Source: a virus. Taken from it: a stretch of 64,000 bases of DNA. The stretch's first letter is position 1, and each line of letters begins with the position of its first letter. The position numbers and the translations under genes were made by a program. The notes under the pieces are model-generated. The model worked only from the letters and a program-made list of their open reading frames with translations, made no database searches and was not told where the DNA came from. The stretch covers positions 1 to 64,000 of the IMG/VR virus record IMGVR_UViG_3300028025_002046. One strand, given 5' to 3'. Shown here in pieces: positions 5,512 to 35,084 of the stretch.

Positions 5512-6140
5512 TATGCCTCTTCCAGCGTAAGGCTAATGTTCCAGAAGTCATAGCTGTTCTGAGTAGTTCCTCCACGCTTTTCAATAGAGTAGTTGAAGTC
5601 AGATATATACATTTCGATTACCTGACTGTATTGCTTCATGTGGGCATAGGATGTAACGTCATCTCCGAATGCTGGATGGTTATCGTATGCCAAGTAAACC
5701 CAGAATGGTCCAATGTGATTATTATACCAATCTAAGATTTCTGCACCTGCAGCACCATTATCTGTTGTGTGTGATAGATATGGAAGCTCTTCTGTTCCTG
5801 CCCCTGGTTTTCCAGTAGAAGAATTGAACGCTGTAGGTCTATTAGATGCCCTTGATGGCAACATGTCCCAAGATACGCTGATGTTTAACTTGTCTGCAAC
5901 ATGGTATGAACGCATACGACCATTAATCATACGCTCACGCTTTTCAATACGGTTGACTTGAAATGCCATTGGAGATCTATTGTCATCTGTCAGAATAATG
6001 AAGTCTTGGTATTCTGTGCCATCTGGAACATATACCTGGGTCTCTCCAAGGGTCTGAAGAGTTCCAGAATTGTCTGCCCAGAGCATTCCTTGCGGACGCT
6101 GGTATTTAATTCTACCATTCATGTAAGCTGCTGAAGCCAT
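5511..6140 (-). CDS. minor tail protein (distal-tail-like)
   Basis: 209 aa directly after TMP, translationally coupled, ends WNISLTLEEA. Confidence 0.6.
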   Translation of the reverse strand: MASAAYMNGRIKYQRPQGMLWADNSGTLQTLGETQVYVPDGTEYQDFIILTDDNRSPMAFQVNRIEKRERMINGRMRSYHVADKLNISVSWDMLPSRASNRPTAFNSSTGKPGAGTEELPYLSHTTDNGAAGAEILDWYNNHIGPFWVYLAYDNHPAFGDDVTSYAHMKQYSQVIEMYISDFNYSIEKRGGTTQNSYDFWNISLTLEEA

Positions 6141-9100
6141 TAGTATCTATTACTCCTTGTTGTCTGGGCATCAATTCTCTGAATTTGAGCCATAACAGTT
6201 CTAGCAATATCATTAGGGTCTGATGCAGAGCTAACGTTTACGCTGATACTGTAACTATTACTATTATACACGGAATCGCCTACGGATGTTTGGCTGTTAG
6301 CTGAAGCACTCTGTAGTGCCTGACCACTGTTAATTGCCTTTAGATTATCTACCCCAAAGTTTTGAACAGCAGAGCGACTCATAACAAATTCACCAGGGGT
6401 AAGCATAGCAGGAATAGTGTCTGTTCCACTAGCATATCCACCAGCATTAAAATAGGAAGGCTTAATCTTAGAAACCATTCCACCATTAGCAAGGGTAGGT
6501 CTTCCTTCGGAATCGAATGTTTGAAATCCCTTAGATCCTAATGGGTTTCTGAAGTCCATTCCTGTCATCTCTTGCAGATAACTTGTTCCAAATAGATAAT
6601 CTGAAATTGCAGCAAACTCTGGACCACCCAATACGCTAAAAGCTCTTCCAAATCTTGAAAATAACTTTGATACTGATTTCCACATATTTGGTGATGTTGG
6701 ATCTATTCCAGGAGCGGCTTCATAGGTTCTTCTTCTTTGAATGTCTTCTAAGAATGATTGTGGAGATGATGACTTTGAGTAACCCCTAGCCTTATCTATT
6801 TCTCCATTTTTTTCTTCATTTCTAATTTTTCTATAGGTTTCAGCCCTCTCCGATCCCCAAAGAATTTCATTCAAGCCTAGGCTTGCCTTGTTCTTACTGT
6901 CAAGGTCTATGTGGTATGTCTTAGAGCCGTCTTTAGCAGTTGAAACCTTTCTAAGTTTTATGACTTGACCTCTAGCAAGTAAGCCGTCCACTACATTTGA
7001 CTCTGGAGAATCTAGCAGAGGGTTCATGTCTAGAATTCCAGGAACATCACTCTTTACATTAAATTTAATTAATGGAGATTTGTTAGATGGATCATAGTAT
7101 CTTCCACCAGTATTAATTGTTCCATCTCTCATACCCTCTACAAAATCTACAAAAGTTCCATTTCCAATATCCGCCTTTTGGTTTGGTGTGGTAATTGACA
7201 GGAACTGGTCAAGAATCGCACTCTGACCAGGCTTTAGCAATGACAGAGCCTTAGCGTCATGTGTATTTGCTACCCTAAGAATGCTAGACCCAGCAGGAAT
7301 GGATAACTTGTTTCTGGATATAAGGTTATCTATTCTTTTTCGAGCCATATCCTGAGTACTATTGTGAAGGGTAAGTGGTCTCTTGATGTACTCCGCCATA
7401 GTCCATTTTTCATCAGCATCTGCGGAACCAGGTCCAACCCTGCCACCATCTGCATACTTTCCAACCATGCCACCCATGGCATAAGCTCCGCTTGCAAATG
7501 GAGACCTGGATTGTCCAGGAAGGTTAGGCATTCCCATACTGCTTGTTCCAAGTAGAGCGTCAGCAAGGAACATTCCTTCTGGACCGCCAATTCTTCCAAG
7601 GGTTCTTAGTAATCCAGAAAGCATACCTCCACGCACTCTACCACTTGGTCCATAAACCTTTGTCTTTATTCCAGAGTTACGCAATTCATTGAAAACATCT
7701 CGTGCGGCATCGTCTGAACTGTGGACACGAATCTTTGCAATTTCGTCTAGAGTAAATCCACCAGGAGTCTGTGTTTCAAAATATCTTGGCTTGTTGTTAA
7801 TAGAATATGCGTTTTCGCCTATCTTGTTTGTGCCAAATCTCATGTTAAGTCTATCCAGAGCTGCTCTCTTAAGAATGTCTGATTTCTTTCCAGATATTGG
7901 CACTGGACCAAAGTTATCTCTTCCAAACAATCCATTTCTAGCATATGTCTCTAGGGTATCGCCAGTATAGAATGTTGATCTATTTTTTACTCTGTTTTTA
8001 GTGATAAGAGATATGTCACCATATCTGTCTAGCTGATCTGAGTTAATATCTGATACTAGGTTAAATCTCTTTCCAGTTTTTCCTCCTAGTGTTCTGTTAA
8101 GGCTTTCCAAAATCTTTGAGTCTGTAACCAATGACCCATACGTTGGTCTTGCTTGTGGTTTAGCTGATTTAGGTATTCCAAGAGCATCTGCCTCCATATT
8201 AAGTCTGGTCCACTTAGCTCTTGAGTTTTCGTTTACATCTTTAAAGTCTTCTCCAGAACCAGTTTCAAATGCGTTCTTGTATCTTCCATCTCCAGCAATC
8301 ATAGACATAAGAGCATCTTGGGTTGTTCTTGCTGCAAGCTTTGTTCTCTTTAGCATTTGTGGTAGAAGTAGGGATGCAGACTTAGATGGCTGTATGAATT
8401 TTTTACGTTCATTATTTCTGAAAGCACGTAGACGTTCTACTATACCACCATCTGCAAAGTGAAGTCTAGTAGAGGTGTTGTTAGAAAGCGTTGGATAGAT
8501 ATGACCATCCATTATTATCTTTTCAATTCTCTTCTGTTCTTTATCTAACTTAATTGGCTTATCAGATAGCAAGCTATCATCTAGTCCAAATGACTTCCAA
8601 ATACTGTCAAAAGCTGCTGGTCCGTATAGAGACTTAATTGATTTTGCAAATGTTTTAGCTTCTTTTTGATCAAGACCATTCCATGGTCCGTATGTTCTAT
8701 TTTGAATAAGTTCTTGCTGTGTAAAGTTGTGTGCTCCTTCGATAGATATAAAGTCTTTTTCTCTATAGTCATTCGCTGGACCCTTGATGAAACTTTCTAA
8801 CTTTCTTCTATTTTGCATAAGAACCTTGTAGTAGACAAAAGCATCTTGTGCCGAGTGGAAGGCATATTTACCTGGACCTATTTCTCTAAATGCATTAGTT
8901 GGCTCATATGAGTCCGTAAAACTATTATAGATAGCACCTGGCAATGCACTTACCTCTTTATAGTTTCCATCATAATTAAAGTAGTCTGGAGTCATGCCCT
9001 CATTGGTTTTAACATTTGGAACATTATAAAATAGTGAAGCTTTATGTTCGCCAAGCCTAAACTTGCTTAGTTTCTTTTTATCGCTTCTATCTACAACAGG

Positions 9101-12100
9101 TCCTGGCAAAAGACCCTGCCTGATTCTATCTGCTCTATCTGCCATCCTAGCATTTCTAGGTACTACCTTGCCACCCTTAGCAAATCTTCTAGCGAATCCA
9201 CCAATACCAAACTTTTCAGCGTGGTTCATTCTGTCAAGGGTATCTACACCAAGAGCCTTTACAGCCTTTGCTCTAATTACATATTCTCCATTAGAAAGCA
9301 TAGCTGGAATATCATCGCTAGTTCCAGTTCCTGGACCCATTACGCTACCGCCTGGACGATAGTGGTTAATCATTCCACCAGTAGCAGCGTTCTTTGGCTT
9401 CTTGTTTACAGCCCAGAAATTAATTTTTGCAATCTGCTCTTCTAGAACTGCAATCTTTCCCTCAAGGTATGAACGTGTTCTTCCTAGTGGGTCGGTAACC
9501 GCATCTAGTTCCATCCGACGTGCTGCATCAAGGTTGTCTCTCTGTCTTTGAATCTGTAAGTTCTGTTCGTTAGCTCTCATTGTTTGTGCTGCACTAGCCG
9601 CTGCACCAATATCACCACGAGATAGAGCATCTGCTAGGTCTAGTTGGTCACGCTGTTGCTGAGAGATCTGATCATTAAGTTCTTGAACTTTATCAAGTGC
9701 TTCAATACGCTTGTCATATTTTTTATTAATTTTTTCTTCTGCAATAGCTATTAGGTCTATTCCTGCCTGATACTTGTCAATCTTTTTATTAGCTGCAGTT
9801 ATTCTTGGATTTTCTCCGTCACCAGGTGGTGGAACTACCTTTTCGGCTGCAGGAATATTTCCTATTAGAGCCTGTAGATCAGCCTCAAGTTTATTTGTTG
9901 GCAAACCAAGAGTTTCTGCTGACTTGATAGCATTTATCAGTGCTAGGACTTTTTCTACGTTTGCTCCGCTTGCAAGTGCCAGAACTCCAGCAAGCTGACC
10001 CCTAACGCTTTTTATTCCAGATATTGTCTTAGCAATTTCTGGGTTAGTTACTGAAAGTTGACGAATTAAAGTTTCAACCAAAAGTGGTCCCTGGTCAGAT
10101 CTACTAACTGTATTAATTAATTCGTTTACTCTATCCTGATATTGAGTCATTGTTATATCTCCACGGTCCAGTGCAGACTCTAGTGCATCAAATGTTGAAG
10201 ATATAGACCCAGACGCAGTGCTTAGGGCATCGGTAAATGCTGGATTATTCTTTAAAAAGTTTTCAATATTGGTGTTTACTTGTTTAAGATATCCTGAATA
10301 CTTGGCAATTGCTGTATCATCTCCAGCAGCCATTGATTCTTCTAGCTTGCCCTGTATGCCGCCCTTGATCTCTAGAAATTGTTTATAGGCATCTTGCATT
10401 CTATATTGTGGCAACATGTCAAGAGCACTTACTGGTGAGATGTTGTCTATTGGTGTAACATTTACTCCAGCAAGCATGGCTTGTTCGTTTGCAACGTATA
10501 GATCTCTAATTATACTGCTTTCAGTATAGGTCTGACTAGAGAATGATTTTAGCATAGCTAGGCTATCCTCAACAGCCTTTTGTGCTGCTTGTCTTCCAAC
10601 ATCTGTAGTTACGTCAACAACGGCAAATTGAAGGTTTATGTCTGTTCTTCCTGCCTCGTCTTGAAGAGCTTTTACAATTACAGAAATCTCATCTTTAGCA
10701 AAATCTTTAGAAAGACCTAATGAAAGATTGCTAATTAGTAGATTTGCATTATCTGTGCTGGCTGTTTTTAGTTCATCAATAATTTCTTTGTAATTCTTTT
10801 TAAAGTCTTCGCTTTTTCTCATCTCTGATGCTGCCATTGACATTGGGTCTGTGATTCCTTGGTCTGCCGTGGCAGTGATAGATGATATATAAGAACTTGT
10901 TGTTGCTTTTCCAAAAAAGTCTCCAAAGAATGATTTATCTTCTTTAGACATATTTGCAGCTTTTGCCTGTGCTTTTATCGACTTGGCTCTTTGTCTTTCA
11001 GCCTCTCCCAGTTTATCAACAACAAAGGCGAGTCCTGTAAGTGCAGTAACAGCAATACCTATACCTGGCAAGAATCTCGCAATCCCCAATGCAAGTTTTG
11101 GAAACATTGAAGCTACTCCAGCAACTTGTGCTCCAATTCCAACCATATTTGCAACATTCTGATCTGGAATAACAGATGCAGCGAGACCACCAGCCATTGC
11201 AATTCCAGTTCCTACTCCAAAACCTCTCATGCCACCGACATACTTGGCAGCTCCTGCGGTACGTCTATTTTGAGAGGCTTTTCCAAATCCAAACAAAGAT
11301 GGCTTCTTGTTCATAGATGCTTTTCTCTCGGCACCCTTAGCCTTTCTAGCCTTTTCATCAATCTTCTTTTGGTCTCTTACTGCCTGAATTTGTTCTTGGG
11401 TAGGGTCAACAGTTCCATAGAGTCTGAGCATGTTGGCTTCTTGTGCCTGGGACTTAGACCTTTTATTTGCAATTGTTGCTCTACGTTTTTCGGCAGCCTG
11501 TGCTTGAATTGCATCATATTCTGCTAGGACACGCTTCTGCTTTACTGTTAGCTTTTTATTAAGCTTTCTTTCTTCTCTTGCTCTAGTTAAATATTCTTTT
11601 GCAGTTTCTTTAGAAGACTTGGCTACTGACTCATCAGCTTGTGCTGTTTCTTTCTTTGCCTTGGTTGAACGCCTTGTTGCTTCTATCTGCTTTTTACCCT
11701 CGGCAACCTCGGTCTGTCTCTGTCCCTGTTTTGATGCTGCAGTCTTTAAGAACTCATCTCGTTCTGACTTCTCAGCATTTGCTAGTTCTCTGGAAACACT
11801 TGAAACTGCCTGATCCTGGTATCTTCTGTTAGATTCTTCTGAGAAAGTATAGCCTCTCTTTGCTATTTCTTCCTGATTATAAAACTTTCCCTTTGCTCTT
11901 CTTTTCAGAATTCTTTGTGCACCAGTGTATTTAAATTTTTCAAGCGGTGTTGTAGCGTTTTCAACAGCAAGCCCCATGATCTTTTCTGCAACTGCTCTTT
12001 GCTTTTGAGTGACAACGTGACCACCCTTAAATATTTTCTTGGCAATGCTGTCAACCTCTTTGGGATCCATGTCCAAAGAGGTTGATATAGTTTGTAGTTT

Positions 12101-14656
12101 TTCTGCGAACTGTGCCTTAACCTTGCCGCCTGTTGAGGAAGCACTTCCGCCCATCTTAAGATCATTAATAGACTTATTAATAACTCCGTAGTCAGCGAAT
12201 AGATTCTTTGGTCTCCAGTTTTTAAACGATCTTGATGCTCCAAATCCAATGTCTCTTGATGTTGTGTCCTCGTTTAGGTGAGAGGCATCGACTCCAAGAT
12301 AATTTTCTCTGATTCTCTGCTTTTTGCTTTGCTCACTATTAAGATCGATTCCCATTTCGGCAGCTAGACTTTCTAGTATTGCAAGCTCTTCATCTCTGCC
12401 CTGCCATTTCATGTCTCTTGACTGTTTCCTAATTGCATCTGGTGCAAACTCTGTCTTGGTCTTTTTCTTTAGCCTTGCACCAAGTGCTCTTTTGCCAACG
12501 CTAAATCCAGGAATATTTCCATCAATAAGTGAGTTTACTAGGTCTGGGTATTTGGCAACATTCTTTGCAGGAATAATGGCTTCTCTATTAGATACTCTAG
12601 CAATAATAGAATCTGAGGTTCCAGTTCCAGGACCACGGATAATTCCACCATTGGCAAATTTCTTTGTAGGTCCTGCTTTACCCTTGCCACCTGTAGCGAC
12701 AGGCATTAATCTTTGAGATGCTAGAACAGCTCTTTCGTATGCTGAGGCAAGCTTGTTTACAGAACCTGCCTCTACATTAAATGTTTGAATAAGTTTTCCA
12801 TGAACCTGGTCAAGAGAGGCGGCAACAGCCTTAGCCTTGATCTGCTCTTCTGTCATGTATCGTGTTTCTTGTCCCAGGATTTCAGACGACGTTTGAACTC
12901 TATTAAACATGCTCTTTAAAGCAGCAAAACCTTTAATAAGGTTGGCAAAGCCGTTGGCTACAAGACCAAAGGTCATTAGCAATACTGGACCTAGACCTGC
13001 AACAATGCTAGTAAATCCAACTATAAATGTTTTTGTTCCATCACTAAGACCATTAAATGCTTTTAGTATACCGTTTACCCAGTCAATAATTGGTGTAACA
13101 AACTTCATAAATGCTTCACCAATTGGTGCTAATTGAGTCTGGAAGTCTTGAATTGCTTTTTGGAACTTGTATAGTGGTGAAGATGATAGCTGTCTAAGTT
13201 CTCGTGCTGCTAGAGCAGCCAACTCTATTGAAGACTTTTGAGCAAGCTGTGCCGTTGTTGCTGCTTGGCTAGAATCACTTGCAACGTTTTTCATCAGAGT
13301 GGAGATACGAGCAAACTGGAACTTGCCGAATAGTTGCTCAATCGCTTTTGCACGGTTTAGAGGATCTAACTTGTCAAGTGCTTTGGCAAACTCTGTTACT
13401 GTTCCACGAACATCTCCCTTGTTTGTTTTAACAATCTTTTCTAAGTTAATACCAAAACCCTGTAGCATTTGTTTTGCTTTACCTGTTGGATTAATCATTG
13501 CTGCAAGACCAGACTTTAGTGCGTTAGCACCTTCGGATGCATTAATGCCACCTTCACGCATAGCGGTTAGGAAGAATGCTAAGTCTTCTACGTCTCCACC
13601 AAGTTGTTTAATAACTGGACCAGCTTTTGGAATAGCGATTGTGAGGTCTTCGATGCTTACTGCTGTCTGGTTTTCTACAGCGTTTAGGAAGTTAATCTTT
13701 TTACCGAGATCTTCTGCTGCTGTTCCAAATGTATCTGTTAGACTAATAGTAGTTTGCAATGCTTGCTGTTGTTCTACCTGACCAAGTACGGCTAGTTTCG
13801 AAGCCTGTTGTACCTGACCAAGAAGGTCTGCACCAGTCTTACCCATTGCTGCAGCCTTAGATGCCATCTCCATGGTATCGCTAACTGCAAGCCCATACTT
13901 TGTAAACTCACCAGCTAGTCTTCTAATACTTTCAGCCATGGCATCTGTGTCTTTAGCACTTGTAGAGAGATCTCCGTATACACGCTTAAAAGAAATTATT
14001 TGCTTTTCCATGTCAGAGAAGGCTTGCATTGCTTTACCAGCAAAAATTCCCAAAGGAATTGTAAAACCAACCATAAGCTGACGACCAGCCCACTGAGTAT
14101 TCTTACCCCAATTGAGCATCTGGGTTGAACCCTGCTTTAGCAGTTGATTGAGAAGTTGCTGCTTCTGTGCAGCAATAGCAGTCTTGGTCTGAAGGTTGTT
14201 CATGTCAAGAGCAAGTGGTCTTACCTGAATAGCCTTCATTGCACCATTGGCATCACGACCTAGTTTAATGTATTGTGTTTGTAAACTCTTTACTCGCTCT
14301 ACCGCAACTTTTTCAATAGTTGCAAATTCTCTAGCAAAACTTCTACCAAATGATTTTGATGCTCCACCTGCATAACGGAAATACTCACCCATTGTGAGCT
14401 TGTTCTTTTCAAGTGCGTTTGTAAAAGACTCTGCAGTTGTTTTTACTGTGGTCATGCTGGCAGCGAATTTGCCAGTCGCATTAATGTTGTCGATTAGTGA
14501 TCTCTGTACCCCAGCAGCCTGTGCTCTTTGGGTTGGACCAAGCCTGGAGAGTTGTGTATGAAGGGCTGACAATTCACTCTGCAGGGCTTTAAGACCTGTC
14601 AGAGCTTTTGATGTGTCAATATTTAAGCCAATATTAGCCTGTACATCATCAGCCAT
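6140..14656 (-). CDS. tape measure protein with internal cargo domains
   Basis: 2838 aa; TP901-type TMP core (AGPVIKQLGGDVEDLAFFLTAMREGG..GANALKS); three copies of the (GPGTGT)SD.IPAML..GE.V motif; follows tail chaperones. Confidence 0.92.
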   Translation of the reverse strand: MADDVQANIGLNIDTSKALTGLKALQSELSALHTQLSRLGPTQRAQAAGVQRSLIDNINATGKFAASMTTVKTTAESFTNALEKNKLTMGEYFRYAGGASKSFGRSFAREFATIEKVAVERVKSLQTQYIKLGRDANGAMKAIQVRPLALDMNNLQTKTAIAAQKQQLLNQLLKQGSTQMLNWGKNTQWAGRQLMVGFTIPLGIFAGKAMQAFSDMEKQIISFKRVYGDLSTSAKDTDAMAESIRRLAGEFTKYGLAVSDTMEMASKAAAMGKTGADLLGQVQQASKLAVLGQVEQQQALQTTISLTDTFGTAAEDLGKKINFLNAVENQTAVSIEDLTIAIPKAGPVIKQLGGDVEDLAFFLTAMREGGINASEGANALKSGLAAMINPTGKAKQMLQGFGINLEKIVKTNKGDVRGTVTEFAKALDKLDPLNRAKAIEQLFGKFQFARISTLMKNVASDSSQAATTAQLAQKSSIELAALAARELRQLSSSPLYKFQKAIQDFQTQLAPIGEAFMKFVTPIIDWVNGILKAFNGLSDGTKTFIVGFTSIVAGLGPVLLMTFGLVANGFANLIKGFAALKSMFNRVQTSSEILGQETRYMTEEQIKAKAVAASLDQVHGKLIQTFNVEAGSVNKLASAYERAVLASQRLMPVATGGKGKAGPTKKFANGGIIRGPGTGTSDSIIARVSNREAIIPAKNVAKYPDLVNSLIDGNIPGFSVGKRALGARLKKKTKTEFAPDAIRKQSRDMKWQGRDEELAILESLAAEMGIDLNSEQSKKQRIRENYLGVDASHLNEDTTSRDIGFGASRSFKNWRPKNLFADYGVINKSINDLKMGGSASSTGGKVKAQFAEKLQTISTSLDMDPKEVDSIAKKIFKGGHVVTQKQRAVAEKIMGLAVENATTPLEKFKYTGAQRILKRRAKGKFYNQEEIAKRGYTFSEESNRRYQDQAVSSVSRELANAEKSERDEFLKTAASKQGQRQTEVAEGKKQIEATRRSTKAKKETAQADESVAKSSKETAKEYLTRAREERKLNKKLTVKQKRVLAEYDAIQAQAAEKRRATIANKRSKSQAQEANMLRLYGTVDPTQEQIQAVRDQKKIDEKARKAKGAERKASMNKKPSLFGFGKASQNRRTAGAAKYVGGMRGFGVGTGIAMAGGLAASVIPDQNVANMVGIGAQVAGVASMFPKLALGIARFLPGIGIAVTALTGLAFVVDKLGEAERQRAKSIKAQAKAANMSKEDKSFFGDFFGKATTSSYISSITATADQGITDPMSMAASEMRKSEDFKKNYKEIIDELKTASTDNANLLISNLSLGLSKDFAKDEISVIVKALQDEAGRTDINLQFAVVDVTTDVGRQAAQKAVEDSLAMLKSFSSQTYTESSIIRDLYVANEQAMLAGVNVTPIDNISPVSALDMLPQYRMQDAYKQFLEIKGGIQGKLEESMAAGDDTAIAKYSGYLKQVNTNIENFLKNNPAFTDALSTASGSISSTFDALESALDRGDITMTQYQDRVNELINTVSRSDQGPLLVETLIRQLSVTNPEIAKTISGIKSVRGQLAGVLALASGANVEKVLALINAIKSAETLGLPTNKLEADLQALIGNIPAAEKVVPPPGDGENPRITAANKKIDKYQAGIDLIAIAEEKINKKYDKRIEALDKVQELNDQISQQQRDQLDLADALSRGDIGAAASAAQTMRANEQNLQIQRQRDNLDAARRMELDAVTDPLGRTRSYLEGKIAVLEEQIAKINFWAVNKKPKNAATGGMINHYRPGGSVMGPGTGTSDDIPAMLSNGEYVIRAKAVKALGVDTLDRMNHAEKFGIGGFARRFAKGGKVVPRNARMADRADRIRQGLLPGPVVDRSDKKKLSKFRLGEHKASLFYNVPNVKTNEGMTPDYFNYDGNYKEVSALPGAIYNSFTDSYEPTNAFREIGPGKYAFHSAQDAFVYYKVLMQNRRKLESFIKGPANDYREKDFISIEGAHNFTQQELIQNRTYGPWNGLDQKEAKTFAKSIKSLYGPAAFDSIWKSFGLDDSLLSDKPIKLDKEQKRIEKIIMDGHIYPTLSNNTSTRLHFADGGIVERLRAFRNNERKKFIQPSKSASLLLPQMLKRTKLAARTTQDALMSMIAGDGRYKNAFETGSGEDFKDVNENSRAKWTRLNMEADALGIPKSAKPQARPTYGSLVTDSKILESLNRTLGGKTGKRFNLVSDINSDQLDRYGDISLITKNRVKNRSTFYTGDTLETYARNGLFGRDNFGPVPISGKKSDILKRAALDRLNMRFGTNKIGENAYSINNKPRYFETQTPGGFTLDEIAKIRVHSSDDAARDVFNELRNSGIKTKVYGPSGRVRGGMLSGLLRTLGRIGGPEGMFLADALLGTSSMGMPNLPGQSRSPFASGAYAMGGMVGKYADGGRVGPGSADADEKWTMAEYIKRPLTLHNSTQDMARKRIDNLISRNKLSIPAGSSILRVANTHDAKALSLLKPGQSAILDQFLSITTPNQKADIGNGTFVDFVEGMRDGTINTGGRYYDPSNKSPLIKFNVKSDVPGILDMNPLLDSPESNVVDGLLARGQVIKLRKVSTAKDGSKTYHIDLDSKNKASLGLNEILWGSERAETYRKIRNEEKNGEIDKARGYSKSSSPQSFLEDIQRRRTYEAAPGIDPTSPNMWKSVSKLFSRFGRAFSVLGGPEFAAISDYLFGTSYLQEMTGMDFRNPLGSKGFQTFDSEGRPTLANGGMVSKIKPSYFNAGGYASGTDTIPAMLTPGEFVMSRSAVQNFGVDNLKAINSGQALQSASANSQTSVGDSVYNSNSYSISVNVSSASDPNDIARTVMAQIQRIDAQTTRSNRY

Positions 14657-14682: not shown

Positions 14683-14997
14683 TTATAGGTTAGGACCTAC
14701 TGAACCAGTCATGTCGATTCCTGAAGCGGCTTCGATAATCTGGTATACGGTTGGGAGGTCTACTAGATCTTCCAATCCCTTTGCATCGACCACTAGGTCT
14801 GGTGCATACTGCTTTAGTGCAATGCCAACACAGTCGATCAACAGGTCCATCGACTTGTCGTTATCTTCTGCTACTGTTGCTAGTCCATCAAACTTCTTCA
14901 TAAATTCACGAAGTAGTGAGATCTTTAGTGGACGAGCTGATAATTCTGTTCCGTTGAGAAGTGTAATCTTCTTCTCTTCATTTACGGTTACTGCCAT
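14683..14997 (-). CDS. tail assembly chaperone (short, G-like)
   Basis: between major tail and TMP; SD AGGAGG; paralog of N-terminus of 15041-15727. Confidence 0.7.
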   Translation of the reverse strand: MAVTVNEEKKITLLNGTELSARPLKISLLREFMKKFDGLATVAEDNDKSMDLLIDCVGIALKQYAPDLVVDAKGLEDLVDLPTVYQIIEAASGIDMTGSVGPNL

Positions 14998-15040: not shown

Positions 15041-15727
15041 TTACCATTTTTCGTAAGATAATCCATTACCAATACCAAAGCCAGCCTTAGCAGCGTTAGC
15101 ACCCTGTAGGGAAACAATGTCATTTGGATCTCCTGTTTGTCCTTTACTGAATACTCTAGCCTTCATTGCTTCCCATGGATTGTCTTCTTCTTTGCCAGAT
15201 TGAGCATCTAGGTCTACCCCCTGGATTGCAGCAAAAAACTTCTTTTCCTGATAATCTAGCTCTCTTTTTGCTTCAAGCGTTGCTGTTAGTTCTGGTAGCG
15301 ATAGCGACATTTCTAGTTCGTCATAGTCTTTCCAGATACCAATAAGAAACGCTTCGGACTCTAGTTTTGCTAAATCAAACTTATCCCAGGTATTGTCGCT
15401 ATTAACAGCTTGTTCTTTTACTGGCTCATCTTTCTTGCTTTCGTCAATCTTGATACCTGCTGCTGCATCTACTATCTTATAGATTGCTTTAATATCAAAG
15501 TTATCTTCTACGTCATCTACAGTTTTAAATGCTGGATGATATTGCTGCATTGCAATCTGTACACACTCAGTTAGTTGTGATATTGCTTCCATGTCGTCCT
15601 CTGACGTTTTTACAGATTGAAACTTTTGCATAAATTGTCTTAGGTATTTAATCTTAAGTGGTGCTAAAACTATCGTAAGACCATCTACTGTGTCTACGTA
15701 TTCTACTTTATATATATTAGTTGCCAT
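15041..15727 (-). CDS. tail assembly chaperone (long, GT-like)
   Basis: G-like N-terminus plus T-like C-terminus (GIWKDYDELEMSLSLPEL); leaderless, TGTTATACT 6 nt upstream. Confidence 0.7.
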   Translation of the reverse strand: MATNIYKVEYVDTVDGLTIVLAPLKIKYLRQFMQKFQSVKTSEDDMEAISQLTECVQIAMQQYHPAFKTVDDVEDNFDIKAIYKIVDAAAGIKIDESKKDEPVKEQAVNSDNTWDKFDLAKLESEAFLIGIWKDYDELEMSLSLPELTATLEAKRELDYQEKKFFAAIQGVDLDAQSGKEEDNPWEAMKARVFSKGQTGDPNDIVSLQGANAAKAGFGIGNGLSYEKW

Positions 15728-24235: not shown

Positions 24236-27200
24236 TTATCTTGGATCTGCGGTAATTCTATCCCACTTTGTACCAAGATACGTAACATACTGATATTTCT
24301 GGAACCTAAGCACATTAGCGTTCTCATTTGCATCTGAGATTATCTTGTTTGTACCAATATAGATCTTATAGATTTCTGATGGATTGATAGGTGGGATAAC
24401 CTCAGCCTTAAAGTATAGTAGGCTCTTCCAGGTTATTGGATTTGTTTCTGCGTATTCTCTCCAGTCGTATGTGGTAGAGCCTTGCCAAGCCTGATTCCAC
24501 GTTCTCTTAACAATTTGCTGTGTCTGTGCTAGTTCGCTTAACTGATAGTAGGAAAGGTTATTCAATACAAAGTTGTTTCTTATCCTAAAGCTTCCTAGGG
24601 ATCCAGAGAAGTCAAGGAATGGGAAGAATACGAGACCTAGCATTGCCCATTCATCTATGTTTAGTACTGGATACTTAACTGTATTTCCATTTAGGAAGTA
24701 TTCTAGTGATGTGTAATCTACCTCGTCATAAACATCGTCGATCTGGTTGTATACCAGCCTCTTTGCGAATACCTTTGCTCTTGTTTGTGCAGAGTTTACA
24801 GATTCAATGTAGAAAAGTATGTGAGCCGTTCCAGATATGATTTCGAACATTTTCTCTGGTGATCCAGCGGCTGGGAATAATCCAAAATTCCAAAGAGCCG
24901 AAAACTGCAAGGAACTAATGTTGAAGAATGGGTCAATATCTTTATTGATTGGAATCATAATTCCTTTTTCAAATTCGGGGTTATATGGTGAAACCATAGA
25001 TATTCCAGAGTTGCCAGTAAGGTATAGGTATGGAGTGCTTCCTTTATATATTCTAACTGGGTTGTAATTTTTGTAGCCAACCTCATCTCCATACTGAACA
25101 TATGGATGAGCGTACTCTCCAAACCTGCTTCCAATTCCGTTGATCGGAATAGATGCTGAAACAGAGTTATCTTCAAGTGCTCTTGATGCATACTGCAATG
25201 ATCTAATATTTATTGGCTTTACTAATGAATTTGAAATAATTTCAAACAAAAGAGATATTGATAGGTTGTCAAGCGATTCTGTTTCACTAAGGCTGGGCAT
25301 TGTAATGACTGAACCATCGACTACCTCGTAAAGATCTGTCTCCCATTCATTAGTTACATCTACGTTGCCGTTTTTAGAAGCTGCCCTTCTGGTGAAGCCA
25401 GAAAGGTCTCTATGCATTCCCTCGTTCATTCTTTGCAATGAAACATAAGCCCTGACGCTTTCCTTTGAGGTATCTAAAAAGTTTCCGTCTATAATTCTAG
25501 ATTGTGGATAGTTAAAATTAACCTGGATAGTATCTATAGTATTTTTTGCTTCTCCAGAAAAGAACTTTTTGGTAGATAGATATGCCAAAGACATATAATC
25601 TTCCCAATATGAATATGATTTAACATCAAGCAGGGAAACGTCTACAATTCTATTGTGAACTAGCGTGTAGCTTGCGACTTTTTCTCTCAGGGTATCAAAT
25701 ACTGTGTAGTTACCAACTATAATTCCATTTGTCTCGTATTCTGAGTAATCTTTTGCATTTTTTTCTGTTGAAAAGCAGAAAGAGTGTATTCTTCCAGTAT
25801 ATGTATTTGACGCTAGGCTTTCTGTACCAGAATAATCCCCACCCAATAATACCTTGAGGGAATCTGGATTTCCAAAGAATCTTGCGTATTCGCTAGACAA
25901 TGATGCAAGAGTGTTGGCATTAATTCCAACCACAAATTTCTCTGTTTGATATTCCATATTTGTTATATCGAATGGCGTTATCATGTCGGATTCTTCTTCG
26001 CCGTTTTGCTTGAAGACAAGGCTAACAAAATTATTGGATAGTGATGCTTTTATATATTCGTTATTCTCGTTTTGAATCTTGAAAAGTATTTGCTCTTCTT
26101 CTACCTGAGAGCCTCCCTCAAATACTCCAAAGATTAAATCATTTCTTGGAGATACATTTTTAAATGAATCAAATATGAGGTATGAGTTGACATTATCCCA
26201 AGCTGCTGATGGCTTTAGGCAGATAAACTGTTGATCATATAGGTTTGCGTCATAGCATTCATTTAGGACTTCCTGTATGGTATTTGTTGTGCTAGAGACG
26301 TATCTAGGTAGGGTATGATTTGGAGATGATAGCAGATCATTGATTGTTATTACATTGTCAGATATTCCTTGGTCCCATTTTCCGTGATCTGGATATAAAA
26401 AGTTTCTTGCATACTCTGCTGCAGCATAGTCTACGAAGAAAGACTTTCCGTCAAATGCTACGTTTATATCTTGTGGATAGGCTACGGCTTGTCCATAGGT
26501 AAATGTTCTTTTTGCCAAATCCTCTGGCATCATGTATGGGTATAGGGCTACTGCATCTACCTCTAAAGTAGGTAAATCTGCGTAGGCATAGAAACCTAGA
26601 AAGTCCTGAGTCTTAAAGTTTTCATCTGTGGCTTGCGACTCATTGAAGAGTGACGAAGATCTGTCTAGACTTTTACCACCTACGAAAGTTCCATTAATAA
26701 ATAACCTTATGTCTGAATCTGAAATCAGTAGGTGAAGTAGCATTGGCTTAAACCATTCTCCAACGTAGTGAGAAAGAATTACGTTTCCATACCTTACGAT
26801 TAGGTGTGGTCCGTTAACATATATTCCATTATCTGAATTAAGGGGACCGATGATTTTTCTATAGTCATTTGGCGATACCCTGGAGTTGACCCTTAGCCAT
26901 GCCTCAAGTGTCATTGTAGAAGATCTAGAGTTTTCATTCATAAAGCCGTGTGCTGGCACAATTAGAGACGGCTCGTTATTGGCATTAGCAACAAGGATGG
27001 TTGAGTTTGAAGCACCGAATACCATTGGGACTGTTGAGTTTTTTGCTAAGAGTTTTTTATTTTTTATAAGATATAACCCAGAGTCTGCATTATAAGATCT
27101 TCCGTATGCTTGTGCAATAATCGCATCGTCTGCAACTGTAGATATGCCTGAGAGGTCGTAGCTAAGACCATTGACACCAACAGACACCTTGTTAAATTCC

Positions 27201-27754
27201 TCTGATAATCTTCCTACAGATAGTCCGTTCAGGTAGATTACGACATGATCTCCAGATGCCGAGCTTTCGTCGTAAGATATCTCTACCACAATCTTTGCGG
27301 TAATCGCTGATGAGTTAGTAAAAGTTTGAGACACAAAGCCCCACTTAGCAAGAGCCACGGTTGCTGAATCTGAGAATACTGGTGCACTAGAACCAATTTT
27401 ATATCCAACACGAACTCCAGTTATAGAATCAACGCCTGTTCCGTAGATGTGTAGACCGATTGTAAAGTCATCTGCTGCGGTTGTAAATGTAGAGTTGCTT
27501 GTCAGGGTTATTGCTGAGTTGCCGTCTGGGACCGACACCATGTATTTTGATGTGTCTAGAATCATTGATCTTGGAACGTTGTCTGGATCTTGAAGTGAAA
27601 AGGTAGTTCCTATAACTGATGGGGTCCATAAAGAAAAGTTTCTGTCTACCTCTGTAATGTATGACAAATAGTCAATCTTGTCGTCAAGTGTCCATAGTGC
27701 TATCGGCTGGTTAGCATATACCTTTTCTGCATATAGATTGGATGGAGTAGTCAT
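24236..27754 (-). CDS. large virion protein with LamG/concanavalin-like domain
   Basis: YA..V....PIALW.LD N-terminus, TLEAWLR, LFING, DAVALY. Confidence 0.6.
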   Translation of the reverse strand: MTTPSNLYAEKVYANQPIALWTLDDKIDYLSYITEVDRNFSLWTPSVIGTTFSLQDPDNVPRSMILDTSKYMVSVPDGNSAITLTSNSTFTTAADDFTIGLHIYGTGVDSITGVRVGYKIGSSAPVFSDSATVALAKWGFVSQTFTNSSAITAKIVVEISYDESSASGDHVVIYLNGLSVGRLSEEFNKVSVGVNGLSYDLSGISTVADDAIIAQAYGRSYNADSGLYLIKNKKLLAKNSTVPMVFGASNSTILVANANNEPSLIVPAHGFMNENSRSSTMTLEAWLRVNSRVSPNDYRKIIGPLNSDNGIYVNGPHLIVRYGNVILSHYVGEWFKPMLLHLLISDSDIRLFINGTFVGGKSLDRSSSLFNESQATDENFKTQDFLGFYAYADLPTLEVDAVALYPYMMPEDLAKRTFTYGQAVAYPQDINVAFDGKSFFVDYAAAEYARNFLYPDHGKWDQGISDNVITINDLLSSPNHTLPRYVSSTTNTIQEVLNECYDANLYDQQFICLKPSAAWDNVNSYLIFDSFKNVSPRNDLIFGVFEGGSQVEEEQILFKIQNENNEYIKASLSNNFVSLVFKQNGEEESDMITPFDITNMEYQTEKFVVGINANTLASLSSEYARFFGNPDSLKVLLGGDYSGTESLASNTYTGRIHSFCFSTEKNAKDYSEYETNGIIVGNYTVFDTLREKVASYTLVHNRIVDVSLLDVKSYSYWEDYMSLAYLSTKKFFSGEAKNTIDTIQVNFNYPQSRIIDGNFLDTSKESVRAYVSLQRMNEGMHRDLSGFTRRAASKNGNVDVTNEWETDLYEVVDGSVITMPSLSETESLDNLSISLLFEIISNSLVKPINIRSLQYASRALEDNSVSASIPINGIGSRFGEYAHPYVQYGDEVGYKNYNPVRIYKGSTPYLYLTGNSGISMVSPYNPEFEKGIMIPINKDIDPFFNISSLQFSALWNFGLFPAAGSPEKMFEIISGTAHILFYIESVNSAQTRAKVFAKRLVYNQIDDVYDEVDYTSLEYFLNGNTVKYPVLNIDEWAMLGLVFFPFLDFSGSLGSFRIRNNFVLNNLSYYQLSELAQTQQIVKRTWNQAWQGSTTYDWREYAETNPITWKSLLYFKAEVIPPINPSEIYKIYIGTNKIISDANENANVLRFQKYQYVTYLGTKWDRITADPR

Positions 27755-30157: not shown

Positions 30158-31207
30158 CTATTTCAATAGTGATGTATAGTGTGCTAGGTTTGCTACTAGC
30201 CTTGGATCATTATTTATCAGAATTGCCTGTTCTGTTTGAGCGATAGCCTCTTCGATATTCCCCAAATTATATTCTGCAATAGCTAGTAAATCGTGTGGCA
30301 AAGCACCCCAGGCGTAATCTTCGCAAAGATAGTCTAGAGGTTTTTCTTTAATGTTTAGAGCAGCCAAGGCATAGTCCTTGCACCATTCCCACTGTTCATT
30401 TTCGTAGTACCATTGGGCAAGCGAAACATAGGACTCTCTTCTGTTTGGATCTTCTGCAATAGCCTGGACAAGATATTGGTCTCCAAGTAAGGGTTGACAC
30501 TTTGCAAGATATCTGTATGCCGCTGCTCTTTCAGCACTCCATCTTGCTGTCGGTAGTTTGAGATAGCGTCTGAACTCTTCCATTGCTTTTTCATTCTGAC
30601 CATAAAAGAAAAGTTCACGAGCGTAGTAATATGCGTTTCTATCATCGTTTGGATCTTCTCTTACAGATAGTTCAAGAAGTGGTAGATATTGTGAGCGTGG
30701 CTTTGAATTGTCTGGGTGATGGTGGATTTCTAGGTCAATCCATTCCTGAACTTCTTGGAGTCTGTCAGTAGTGAGTACTTCGTGAACTGGATGTTTCCAG
30801 CGGTATCCATGACGAGCATGAATCTTGTCTCCACCATACTCTAGACCAGGTGTGCCATCTTTATTCCATGACCAAGTATATTTATAACGAGGACGAGTTG
30901 TCTCTGACTTGATGCCCTCAAGTTTTTCACGCCATCCTGGAACCAGAACTTCGTCCATGTCAAGAGAGATGCAGATATCGATATCCTTTGGTAGGGCTGC
31001 TAGTGATGCGTTACGAGCATCATCAAATCTCCAAGGGCTAATTGAAATTGTAAATACGTCAATGCCTAAGTCCTGAGCAATCTGAACGGTATTATCAGTA
31101 GAACCAGTATCAGCAATAAGTAAATAATCTGCATCCATGGCAGACTTATACCATGATTCTACAAACTGTTCTTCATTAAGTGCGATTGTATAGACCGCAA
31201 TTTTCAT
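30158..31207 (-). CDS. GT2 glycosyltransferase with TPR C-terminus
   Basis: IAVYTIALNEE, DTGSTD, FDDARN, LDMDE, W..PVHE, YYYARE. Confidence 0.9.
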   Translation of the reverse strand: MKIAVYTIALNEEQFVESWYKSAMDADYLLIADTGSTDNTVQIAQDLGIDVFTISISPWRFDDARNASLAALPKDIDICISLDMDEVLVPGWREKLEGIKSETTRPRYKYTWSWNKDGTPGLEYGGDKIHARHGYRWKHPVHEVLTTDRLQEVQEWIDLEIHHHPDNSKPRSQYLPLLELSVREDPNDDRNAYYYARELFFYGQNEKAMEEFRRYLKLPTARWSAERAAAYRYLAKCQPLLGDQYLVQAIAEDPNRRESYVSLAQWYYENEQWEWCKDYALAALNIKEKPLDYLCEDYAWGALPHDLLAIAEYNLGNIEEAIAQTEQAILINNDPRLVANLAHYTSLLK

Positions 31208-31214
31208 GTCTCTC

Positions 31215-34200
31215 CTACTTGTTTTCTAGAGCTTCTAGTCTAGCATAAAGTTCTGAGATTTGTCCAGCCTGGTGTCTGACTACCTGCTGAAGTGCTGATA
31301 CATAAAATTCGTAGTTAATTGTTTCTGGAGTTACGCCATCTTCTCCATATGAAATGTAAGCGTGTAGTCCAGCATCTTCAAGGTCTTCTACAATAAATCC
31401 AGCATGTTTAGGATTTGTGTCTGGCTCTGGATTGTATAGATACTCTACAGGCTCAATAGAAAGAATTTGTTCTGCTGTGTAGGATAGTGGCTCAATTGCT
31501 TTCTTCATTGAGCGGCTAGACGCAACATAGCCAAGTGTATCTGGAGCGGTTGCAGATGTTACATATACTGCACGGTATGAAGATGAAAGTGTATTTCCAT
31601 AAACACCAGAAGCACCGACAGTTCCAGATGGAGTAATTCCAAGACGAGAAGAGCCCTGATATCTAAAGTATGATCCAGCTGTATTGGCTCCGATCAGAAG
31701 GTCTGTGGTATTTCCAGTGGTTCCAATAACTGTTGCTTTATTATCAACGTTATTAATTCTAAGAGTTGTTCCGTCGTAGGACATGGCAGTTAGACCGTTT
31801 ACATATAGTGTGCCTGAAGTATAAATGTTTGACGATACCCTCAGAACTTCTCCAACGCTCACACCGCCAGTTACAACCAGGGCTCCAGTTCCGATAGCAG
31901 ATGCCCCAGTTGCATTTGTGACCGATGTTACACCTGTGACACCCAAAGTTCCTGCAATTGAGGTATTTCCAGATGCAGCGGTAACTACAAACTTATTTGT
32001 ATTAACCTTTAAGTCAGAAGTTACGCCAAGAGTTCCAGCAATACTTGTATTTCCAGTTGTATCAGCTACTGAGAATGCTGTTGAGTCAACAGAGAATCCT
32101 CCGTTCAAAGATACTGCACCTGTGAATGTTTTTGCACCAGCAAAAGTTTGAGTTCCAGTTGTTACTGCACCAGACAAGGTATCACTAGCATCTGTAATTC
32201 CAATTGTTTGAGCACCTGTAGGTCCTGTTACAGTAATTGGTGCTGTTGCACTTGCAATACCTGCAGGTCCCTGTGGACCTGTATCTCCAGTTGCTCCGTC
32301 TAAGCCATTGTCTCCTGGGTCACCCTTTGGACCTGTAATGCCTTGAGGTCCTGTAATGCCTTGAGGTCCTGTGGGTCCCTCTGGTCCTGTAATACCTTGC
32401 GGTCCTGTAGGACCCTGTGCTCCAGTTGGTCCTTGAGGACCTGTAGCACCATCTGCACCGTTAGTTCCATTGGTTCCGTTTGTTCCGTTAGCCCCTGTAG
32501 GTCCTTGTGGACCAGTTGGACCCTGGCTACCTGCAGGTCCTGTCGGTCCAGTAGCTCCATCGGAACCATTAGTTCCATTCGTACCATTAGTTCCAGCAGG
32601 TCCAGTTGGACCAGTAGCACCATTTGAGCCAGAGGCTCCTGTCGGTCCTGTTGGACCTTGAGAACCATTACTTCCTGCAGGACCAGTTGGTCCAGTAGCA
32701 CCTGTAGTTCCAGTTGGACCTGTTGGTCCACTTTGAGGTGACACAAATTCATAGAGACCAGACGTTGCGTTCCAAGATAGAACATATCCATCTTGCTTTC
32801 CAGTCATTGTAACATCGTGGATTTCATAGAGCTCAAATCCGTTTTGAATGTTAACAAAGATCTCACCATTGTTGCTCTGCACACGAGTAACAACACCAAT
32901 AAACACTAAGTGTGCTGGAGCTACTGGCTTATTTGTCAAACCATAAATAAGATTTCCGCTTGTACCTAGCCATACTGGGTCTCCAGCGGCAGCGGTAGAT
33001 GTGTTCAGACCAGCAAGCAAACCTTCTGTAACAACCTTAACAATATCGTTGGTTGCTCCACCAGTTTCAAGAAGACCTAGGGTCTTTGAAGATGTTCCTT
33101 CTGTAGCATTAGATGCTTTAGAAACAATCATGTTGGTTCCGTTTGCAGATGAAACATATACCGCTTGTCCCTTTGCAATTGCTTCACCGAGCTTTACCTC
33201 ATGCTTTACTTGTGTTGCATAGTTATCAATCCAGGTGGTGTTGTAGTCTGTTCCATCTACCTTGGATAAAATCTGTCCTGCTGTACCGCCAGATGCTACA
33301 CCAGCACCAGTAGCTCCTGTTGGACCTGTAGCACCAGGTAGACCAGTTCCAGTTGTCATTAATGCTGCTGAGAAGAATGTTCCCTGACCGCTAGAGCTTC
33401 CGCCCCATCGAAGAGTCTGAGATGTAGTATTTCCTGTGTAGGCAGTGAAATCTACATAGTCTGTGGATCCGTTTAGATATACCAGCTTAGTAGAGTTTTG
33501 GAAAAGTCCTTCATTAGTATTGGTTGGACTTTGGCTGATGGATACGGTGTTGCCATTTTTACGGATTTGGATATTGGTCTGGTTATTAGAAACTGCAGCG
33601 GTAGACCACCAAACTTGAAAAGTAATATTATAGTATCCAGCAATAGTTGGCAAGAACTTTTTGTCGGTAGGGTTCCACCAGCTGTTTGGATCAAAGTCAT
33701 CCACGAAAGGAATTACCGTGTCAGTGTTTGCAGTTACAGTAAGGTCTCCTGTTAAACGACCTTGCGAAACAGCATCAGTAGCAGAAATATTTGCAGACGG
33801 TCCTGTTGGACCTGTAGCACCTGTAGGTCCAGTAGCTCCTGTAGGTCCTGCAACTGTAGATGCCGCACCTGTGGCTCCTGTAGGTCCTGTTGGACCAGTA
33901 TCCCCTATAGAGCCTTGAGCACCTGTAGGTCCAGTTACTCCATCATTTCCAGCAACTCCTTGAGGACCAGTAGGACCCTCGTTTCCTTGGTCGCCTTGAG
34001 GACCTGTTGGTCCCTGTGGTCCAGTATCGCCTTGCGGTCCTGTAGGACCTAAATCTCCTTGTGGACCTGTCGGTCCTGTGTCTCCTTGTGAACCTGTAGG
34101 ACCAGTCTCACCCTGGGGACCTGTTGGTCCTTCGTTTCCTTGTGGTCCTGTAGCTCCATCGTTACCCTGGACTCCCTGATCGCCTTGCGGTCCTGTAGGA

Positions 34201-35084
34201 CCAGTATCCCCAGTAGCACCTGTTGGTCCTATTGGACCAGTATCTCCTGTTAAACCTGTACTTCCTTGAATACCTTCTGGACCTTGTGCTCCAGTTGGTC
34301 CAGTTGCACCAGCATTTCCTTGTGGACCTGTAGGTCCAGTATCACCAGTAGGTCCAGCATCTCCTTGTGGTCCTGTCGGACCTGGCACGGTAGAGTCAGC
34401 ACCAGTTGGACCAGTAGGACCTTGAGGACCTACAATCTGACCTACATCAGTCCAAGATGAGCCATCCCAGACATATAGATTTCCATCGGCATCAACAATG
34501 TATGCGTCTCCGCTTTCGTTTCCAGATGATGGAAGATTTCCTACTGTGGCTACTGAGCCTTTAAAGTTAATTGATGTACCCTGCGGTCCTGTAGGACCCT
34601 GAGAACCTGTTGGTCCAATATCTCCCTGCGGACCTGTAGCCCCTGTAGCACCTACGTTTCCTTGAGGTCCAGTCGGACCCTGAGAACCTTGAGGACCTGT
34701 TGGTCCTGTTTCTCCAGCATTACCCTGGATACCTTGATTACCCTGAGCACCTGTAGCCCCTGTTGGACCAACACTTCCTTGTGATCCTGTAGGACCCTGA
34801 GATCCAGTAGGACCTTGAGCACCAGTAGCACCGTTAGCACCAGTAGCACCTGTTGCTCCAGTAGGACCAGTAACGGTACTTGCAGCTCCTGTTGGTCCTG
34901 TAGGACCAGTGGGTCCTGCTTCTCCAGGAAGACTAGCGTATGGAAGATCTGGATAAAGATTAACGCTGTCACCAAACTTAAACAGATTTGTATCTGTCTC
35001 ATATCCAATTTCACCTTCAGCGAGAATGTATGTAGACTCAGCCCATTCAGCTGCTAATCCTCTGCGGTGTTGAATAATTGCCAT
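31215..35084 (-). CDS. collagen-like tail fibre (Mtd-N-like head, C1q-like domain, S74-like chaperone)
   Basis: [26 protein letters not shown]; long G-P-T/G-x-x tracts; C-terminal SSR.MK..GFIVEDL..INY. Confidence 0.85.

Follow-up and report, generated by a model that had tools for sequence, protein, structure and literature searches.

Exchangeable cassettes with predicted ADP-ribosyltransferase folds in a giant siphophage tape measure protein

The locus described here raises the question of what a phage tape measure protein (TMP) carries between repeated copies of a short A-x-G-G motif, and whether these motifs are places of exchange, of cleavage, or of both. It lies within the first 64 kb (64,000 nt, hereafter the window) of the 94.6-kb IMG/VR virus record IMGVR_UViG_3300028025_002046, the completeness of which is about 88%. 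The TMP of the window, referred to as P0001 (other P-numbers denote its relatives), is encoded on the complementary strand by one open reading frame (ORF) of 2838 codons plus stop, with no internal stop codons (Table 1). PhageMin_Tail (PF10145) matches P0001 with 90 bits against a cut-off of 33.2 (E = 2.3e-25), and PHROG TMP families match aa 1–655 with E values down to 9e-103. The first-pass annotation of this DNA had proposed that the A-x-G-G motifs following the coiled-coil body are cleavage or recombination points, from which interchangeable effectors are released at infection. The alignments presented below show that related phages exchange cassettes exactly at these motifs, and two of the cassettes are confidently predicted to have ADP-ribosyltransferase (ART) folds. 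Delivery of the cassettes into the host is likely by analogy with other TMPs, and their release by cleavage is a more doubtful matter.

Joints, blocks and cassette exchange

The pentapeptide [FYL]-A-x-G-G, here termed a joint, occurs six times in P0001 against a mean of 0.31 in shuffled sequences, none of the 5000 shuffles reaching six, and the shorter A-x-G-G is found eight times where 2.1 copies are expected (P = 0.002). A longer block of the form xAxGG ... G(P)GTGTSDxIPAxLSxGEfV ... G(V)DxL is present in three copies (blocks 1–3, Table 1). Block 2 opens with AATGG (aa 1757–1761, nt 9388–9374), contains GPGTGTSDDIPAMLSNGEYV at aa 1774–1793 and closes with FAKGG (aa 1825–1829, nt 9184–9170), while block 3 carries LANGG/FNAGG/...TDTIPAMLTPGEFV from aa 2722 onward (nt 6493 downwards). 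All of the motifs listed in the first-pass annotation were found where it had placed them, FAKGG, YAMGG/YADGG and LANGG exactly and FADGG (8458–8444) with a shift of one base. The first copy of the block (aa 653–715, nt 12700–12512), which lies outside its coordinates, had been missed.

Between block 2 and block 3, the isolated joints FADGG and YAMGG/YADGG separate three cassettes from one another: C with 237 aa, D with 320 aa and E with 316 aa. Residues just before the joints are predicted to be disordered, with a predicted local distance difference test score (pLDDT) below 50 in the AlphaFold2 (AF2) models of D and E, which fits flexible linkers. Cassettes D and E both end, just upstream of the joints, with a second repeated element, R.GR..(S).LGGPE(G/F)..(A/S)D.L.GTS (aa 2340–2380 and 2660–2700; window ~7640–7517 and ~6680–6557), and this element is near-identical in P0003 and P0051. 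Many cassettes in relatives (P0010, P0051, P0012, P0016 and P0059) begin with a linker motif that reads roughly DP..W..L.L..(I/L)P.GK, so that several stereotyped linker types besides xAxGG seem to be in use. A complex prediction with three copies of block 2 gave a score of 0.01.

An exhaustive HMMER search recovered 106 relatives. Other searches were less productive: tblastn of the cargo region (aa 1831–2722) against GenBank phages gave no match, a search of viral contigs with segments D and E singly gave no relatives, and a word-index protein search with segments E and C gave no match, reflecting a limit of the word index. The same domains recur in other giant TMPs of 2,300–3,400 aa, nearly all with two or three blocks of the GEFV type. 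The position of the domains varies. A D-type domain directly follows block 1 (~aa 724–990) in about 25 giant TMPs, follows block 2 in P0003 and P0004, and stands further along in P0005; E-type domains are found just upstream of the last block in many relatives; and two IMG/VR contigs encode TMPs of 3,458 and 3,670 aa in which D and E are arranged differently again. The 'small' homologues with cargo and block are mostly ORF fragments ended by contig edges, not free-standing genes.

Comparison of individual relatives with P0001 places the breakpoints precisely. P0004 is colinear with P0001 through block 2 (61% identity), after which the end of block 2 is fused straight to segment D, as ...FARRYADGG/IVERLRKFRNSER (the slash marks the junction, and IVERLRKFRN is the start of segment D). 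Segment C, together with one joint, has therefore been cleanly inserted or deleted, and it is missing from P0003 as well as from P0004. In P0003, segment D is 85% identical to that of the window. Both P0003 and P0051 match the window as far as ...GGMVGKYA(D/K)GG and are unrelated to it from the next residue. Ahead of block 3, no relation to the window is seen in P0004, P0051 or P0003 before (L/F)A(N/S)GGMVSKIKPSYFN, and from there on P0004 is 91% identical, P0051 near-identical and P0003 71% identical to it. Where P0001 has segment E, these three proteins carry another module, with the signature YGPGTY[FL] (P0051 aa 385–600, P0004 aa 2605–2742, P0003 aa 1970–2146), which is also found in P0017 (aa 732–909). 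A possible identity of this module as ART-PolyVal came from an ESM Atlas lead (0.91) but stays a lead only, as Pfam and PDB sequence searches gave nothing. Taken over all comparisons, 78 of 225 ends of domain-size high-scoring segment pairs lie within 15 aa of a joint, compared with 13% expected.

These alignments show that cassettes are deleted, substituted and moved among related phages. The breakpoints coincide exactly with A-x-G-G joints, and the flanks remain highly similar. The search for cargo swaps at A-x-G-G among related TMPs, which had been suggested as a check, thus found swaps with residue-exact junctions. The segments behave as interchangeable cassettes and not as ordinary helical TMP, as judged from these swaps, deletions and moves at the joints and from the two ART folds described in the next section. 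Downstream of block 1, where many relatives carry a SopF-like ART, P0001 has an unassigned charged segment (aa 716–930; window ~12511–11867). P0002 has a 184-aa insertion after block 1, and this stretch is therefore probably another cassette slot.

The source of the ORF is a metagenomic contig, and it could be asked whether the ORF is an assembly chimera, or a gene fusion produced by sequencing errors. This is extremely improbable, since dozens of independent proteins of 2,500–3,700 aa from other assemblies keep the order of block and cassette, including the 3,458- and 3,670-aa ORFs mentioned above. In addition, the cargo region is devoid of internal Shine-Dalgarno sequences with ATG or GTG starts, which indicates that the cassettes are translated together with the rest of the TMP.

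Predicted folds of the cassettes

Cassette D had been labelled 'DUF3626-like', and this description holds. DUF3626 is a domain of the Salmonella effector SopF (PMC6682159), which is an ADP-ribosyltransferase with structures 7DN8 and 7DN9 in the PDB (PMC10333799). About 90 relatives of cassette D were found by exhaustive HMMER searching, and several small ones exceed the Pfam cut-off for DUF3626 (PF12294), with 45.1 bits for P0091, 39.1 for P0079 and 34.6 for P0062. A profile of 51 cassette D sequences retrieved SopF (7dn8_C) from the PDB with E = 6.9e-8; such a profile was needed, as single-sequence phmmer searches of the PDB with cassettes D and E gave only noise. The AF2 model of cassette D (pLDDT 84.6, predicted template modelling score 0.78) has SopF (7dn9/7dn8) as its best Foldseek match (E = 2e-6), with DarT second. 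Superposition by VIA on SopF gave Z = 12.8 and a root-mean-square deviation of 3.4 Å over 195 residues, and that on DarT Z = 10–11. The further structural matches (OspC3/CopC, CteC, and the cholera and pertussis toxins) are all ART folds.

Conserved residues of cassette D are consistent with this assignment. Residue E2294, within YFETQTPGG, is invariant (50/50) in a motif Y-[IV]-E-[AT]-[QH]-x-x-G that is shared with the SopF/DarT-like proteins, and it aligns with the Glu of SopF NYIEAHIHG, which we take to be the catalytic residue of SopF (I-Y-E triad). Residues Y2173, Y2212, R2151 and E2155 are conserved as well. From the profile and the model, cassette D is confidently predicted to have a SopF/DarT-like ADP-ribosyltransferase fold with conserved active-site-type residues. 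Sequence identity to these proteins is 13–15%. SopF requires host ARF GTPases and targets a eukaryotic V-ATPase (PMC10333799), and neither would matter in the host of a phage.

The earlier label 'ART-like' for cassette E holds as well. Its AF2 model reaches a pLDDT of 71 as a whole and exceeds 80 in the core, and Foldseek returned 127 PDB matches at E ≤ 1e-3, those listed being all ARTs of the R-S-E type: Certhrax was the best (7.7e-8), accompanied by C3, CDTa, iota Ia, Plx2a and Vis. Among viral models (BFVD), it resembles T4-type Alt, actinophage VIP2, and ARTs fused to MuF or portal proteins. The analogy that had been drawn to MuF toxins and T4 Alt fits for this reason, these being the closest viral folds of the segment. 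Two residues that may correspond to the Arg and the Ser-x-Ser/Thr motif expected of this clade, as placed by sequence, are conserved and lie on predicted strands, R2461 (LRVAN) in 16/16 sequences and S2487 (S-I-T) in 17/17. No Pfam family, ART or other, matched cassette E at E ≤ 10. The model nevertheless allows an R-S-E clade (C3/Alt-like) ART fold to be predicted with confidence, and the AlphaFold and Foldseek checks envisaged earlier for D and E have therefore returned ART folds in both cases.

Cassette C gave no Pfam and no PHROG matches, and in the HMMER search its homologues were found only in P0002, P0017, P0056 and P0008. NADAR was considered as a candidate, but the Atlas lead (0.85) was below the trust level and a NADAR hidden Markov model (HMM) run on the genome gave no support.

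The tape measure gene and its surroundings

The position of the gene agrees with its assignment. Upstream of it are two chaperone-like genes and an immunoglobulin-domain tube protein, and downstream are minor tail protein genes, so that the location expected of a TMP, with tail assembly chaperones on one side and distal or minor tail proteins on the other, accompanies the TMP core domain of P0001. In gene order (portal, protease, capsid, ..., TMP) the window is syntenic with Streptomyces phage Coruscant, the capsid proteins of the two being 43% identical. The proteins of the window resemble those of actinophages, and its G+C content is near 40%. By analogy with T5, lambda and Douge, the C-terminal tail of P0001 would be the part that plugs the tail-tip hub. 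The features of the gene are collected in Table 1.

Table 1. Features of the P0001 tape measure gene, in window coordinates
Feature	Position (nt)	Strand	Basis or remark
TMP gene (P0001)	6140..14656	-	single ORF, 2,838 aa; Pfam and PHROG TMP matches
PhageMin_Tail core domain (aa 253-444)	13325..13900	-	Pfam
Hydrophobic, probable membrane segment (aa 542-574)	12935..13033	-	Kyte-Doolittle 19-mer score up to 1.96
Block 1: ATGG / FANGG + GPGTGTSDSIIARVSNREAIIP (aa 653-715)	12512..12700	-	motif search
Gly-rich hydrophobic hairpin (aa 1145-1217)	11006..11224	-	
Block 2: AATGG ... GPGTGTSDDIPAMLSNGEYVIRAKAVKALGVDTL ... FAKGG (aa 1757-1829)	9170..9388	-	motif search
Cassette C, aromatic-rich (aa 1830-2066)	8459..9169	-	bounded by FAKGG and FADGG
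Joint FADGG (aa 2067-2071)	8444..8458	-	motif and junction alignment
Cassette D, predicted SopF/DUF3626-like ART fold, then disordered tail with GGPEGMFLADALLGTS (aa 2072-2391)	7484..8443	-	profile, AF2, Foldseek, VIA
Double joint YAMGG/YADGG, YAMGGMVGKYADGG (aa 2392-2405)	7442..7483	-	identity of P0003 and P0051 stops exactly after ...DGG
Cassette E, predicted C3/iota/Certhrax/Alt-like ART fold in first ~235 aa, then low-confidence helical tail with GGPEFAAISDYLFGTS (aa 2406-2721)	6494..7441	-	AF2, Foldseek
Block 3: LANGGMVSKIKPSYFNAGGYASGTDTIPAMLTPGEFVMSRSAVQNFGVDNLKAINSG (aa 2722-2790)	6287..6493	-	91% identity to P0004 despite unrelated upstream cassette
C-terminal tail (aa 2791-2838)	6143..6286	-	kept in relatives

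Several other features of the window may be recorded here. Within the region encoding the N-terminal domain of the TMP (nt 14051–14126, aa ~178–202, ...NWGKNTQWAGRQLMVGFT...), a stretch of about 65–75 nt shares 86–94% DNA identity with the TMP genes of 57 Streptomyces phages, whereas outside it the proteins of the window are only 30–45% identical to those of the same phages. The two genes upstream of the TMP gene (14683–14997 and 15041–15727, both on the minus strand) each start with phrog_10504, to which the longer adds phrog_10474; two paralogous genes, and not a frameshift product, thus seem to supply the usual G / G-T chaperone pair. Genes for two collagen-like tail fibres (1289 and 379 aa; 31215–36223, minus strand) occupy a locally GC-rich stretch (≤51%, compared with ~40% elsewhere) and adjoin a predicted beta-1,4-glycosyltransferase (30158–31207). 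Upstream of the portal gene, a 1172-aa ORF (24236–27754, minus strand) has no PHROG or Pfam matches.

Proposed delivery, possible processing and comparable systems

The reading preferred here, and thought rather probable, is that the giant siphophage TMP is a modular, polyvalent cargo carrier, the cassettes of which are delivered and act as early host-takeover or anti-defence enzymes, with the joints as exchange junctions. Established TMP biology would place P0001 in the tail lumen and have it exit ahead of the DNA, so that the cassettes would be carried into the infected cell. Once inside, the predicted NAD+-dependent transferases could act on proteins or nucleic acids of the host, in the way that the head-borne Alt of T4 does. 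As flexible and selectable junctions, the joints would permit the exchange of cassettes without harm to tail assembly. Delivery of this cargo into the host by P0001 is considered likely, by analogy.

For cutting at the joints there are two precedents. In T5 pb2 the cut follows R1127 (Linares et al. 2023, PMC10038345), and the sequence at this point, FVPR/AEGGMMYPG...MGEHGTEVV (slash at the cut), places it immediately upstream of A-E-G-G, which is followed by a degenerate ...GE..EVV. The catalytic C-terminal module split off in this way (pb2C, the remainder being pb2*) stays in the virion and is freed at infection (PMC10038345). Differences from P0001 are that T5 pb2 has a single muralytic module with a metallopeptidase motif and a single site, while the TMP of the window has three cassettes, two with predicted ART folds, and exchange among relatives. 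The second precedent, lambda gpH, is processed into gpH* and gpHC. It carries FATGG...GEFVF...YATGG, in a block (FATGG ... GEFVFTKEATSRIGVGNLYRLMRGYATGG) like those of P0001, and an HMM built from 110 block instances matches it at residues 754–781 (GEFVFTKEATSRIGVGNLYRLMRGYATG), just downstream of FATGG, with 9.8 bits compared with at most 4.8 in 1000 shuffles. Lambda gpH is cleaved in a Gly-rich region adjoining its block, and gpHC remains with the tail tip (PMC12617516). Here the difference is that gpH has one block and is without enzymatic cargo. That the joints of P0001 are also processing sites, as in T5, with the cassettes released as separate proteins, is accordingly a possibility, albeit a doubtful one. 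The stronger form of this proposal is that the TMP is a true polyprotein, in which a host or phage protease acting at [FYL]-A-x-G-G (and also cutting T5 pb2 and lambda gpH) would free a variable set of enzymes, here two different ARTs, and that these would travel unfolded ahead of the DNA to reprogram or disarm the host within seconds; this has to be regarded as unlikely at present.

Several observations weigh against the cargo reading or against its cleavage step. Cassette D itself scores 20.6 bits with Pfam DUF3626, below the gathering cut-off of 27 bits, and segment C is without an assigned fold. In cassette E, the expected catalytic Glu is replaced by Asp2557 in 17 of 18 sequences (Glu in one) and there is no Q or E at position -2; the motif, located by sequence pattern, reads S-N-V-V-D-G-L-L-A-R-G where [QE]-x-E would be expected. 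The active-site signature is thus atypical for the predicted ART fold and, on this sequence evidence, cassette E may not be a canonical ART. As regards delivery, folded domains of 25–35 kDa in three copies would be too big for a tail lumen of ~4 nm, so that passage would require unfolded or extended cargo. As regards cleavage, the lambda gpH cut site is unmapped and its protease unidentified (PMC12617516). Neither the neighbouring tail genes show a peptidase domain nor the TMP itself a peptidase family. The block HMM does not find T5 pb2, and the link to T5 is therefore a four-residue pattern, that is, a resemblance at the level of the motif.

The last two points also favour an explanation with the same architecture and no cleavage, in which the xAxGG/GEFV sequences serve as hinges, registers or docking sites (for tube, hub or chaperones), and the cassettes stay tethered, either working in cis where the phage enters or being tolerated passengers. 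The full GEFV block is typical of ordinary TMPs near the end that docks to the tip. It occurs once near the C-terminus of lambda gpH, once in the TMP of Coruscant and twice in that of Douge, as counted in the sequences; the Douge TMP structure (PDB 8ZDO) models residues 1658–1699 only, and both blocks lie outside the modelled part. P0001 shares the ruler features of such proteins (PhageMin_Tail domain, helical body and hydrophobic segments) but has the block three times. Furthermore, cleavage has only ever been shown for two TMPs, those of T5 and of lambda. Against this explanation, joints that lack the GEFV part (FADGG and YAMGG/YADGG) also bound cassettes, which means that the pentapeptide matters alone, and the T5 cut falls exactly before AEGG. 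Moreover, if two different enzymes that use NAD+ were tied to a channel across the membrane, their reach to cytoplasmic targets would be restricted. Tethering without cleavage is on balance the less likely reading.

A further alternative is that the cassettes are trimmed during tail assembly and stay in the producing cell, either as late enzymes or as discarded scaffolds. The cleaved C-terminal fragments of pb2 and gpH were long assumed to be lost from the tail, but the retention of pb2C and gpHC in the virion has since been established (PMC10038345, PMC12617516). In P0001, the cassettes sit between conserved blocks and upstream of the tip-docking tail, so that their removal would call for two cuts and re-association, and the rapid turnover of cassettes is typical of host-facing effectors. 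Trimming of this kind is accordingly quite improbable.

Returning to the reading of P0001 as a cargo carrier, among the closest known systems are the polyvalent proteins (Iyer et al. 2017, PMC5512222), the MuF fusions and T4 Alt, in which several effector domains, including ARTs, are brought together in a single polypeptide of the virion and delivered along with the DNA. Polyvalent proteins have highly variable domain content, and processing has been proposed for them (PMC5512222). P0001 is comparable in having two predicted ART folds and one unassigned domain in architectures that are shuffled among relatives. These known proteins are, however, packaged in the head (MuF, portal and N4 virion RNA polymerase contexts) and often carry their own metallopeptidase, whereas the TMP of the window would be a tail-lumen carrier with defined pentapeptide junctions; no peptidase domain was seen in it, and it is not joined to a MuF, portal or relaxase carrier as polyvalent proteins are. 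The paper describing polyvalent proteins makes no mention of tape measure proteins (PMC5512222). A second comparison is with TMPs in which cell-wall hydrolase or signalling motifs are embedded (for example in mycobacteriophage TM4 and in T5, as cited in PMC12617516 and PMC13277306), where inserts unrelated to the ruler are likewise tolerated and delivered at infection. The inserts known so far act on the envelope, whereas ART cargo would need cytoplasmic NAD+ and targets. The literature also holds TMP-related effectors of contractile injection systems, MuF-ART fusions and a Gly-zipper link of TMPs to a type VI secretion system effector; a literature search found no description of ART-carrying, cassette-swapping TMPs.

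TMPs have usually been treated as rulers or channel formers with, at most, a cell-wall hydrolase. The giant TMP family described here behaves as a polymorphic effector carrier, in which conserved docking blocks and a five-residue joint let enzyme cassettes, including two predicted classes of NAD+-dependent transferase, pass between phages. The joint is also a candidate for the maturation cut of lambda gpH. If the polyprotein reading is true, delivery of effectors through the tail lumen would run parallel to that of the head-packaged Alt and MuF toxins, and a TMP maturation site would have been identified. As a scaffold already present in nature, the family could be used to load phage tails with foreign proteins. 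If the cargo is indeed delivered, host-takeover or anti-defence enzymes would be injected by two routes, through siphophage tails as well as from the head.

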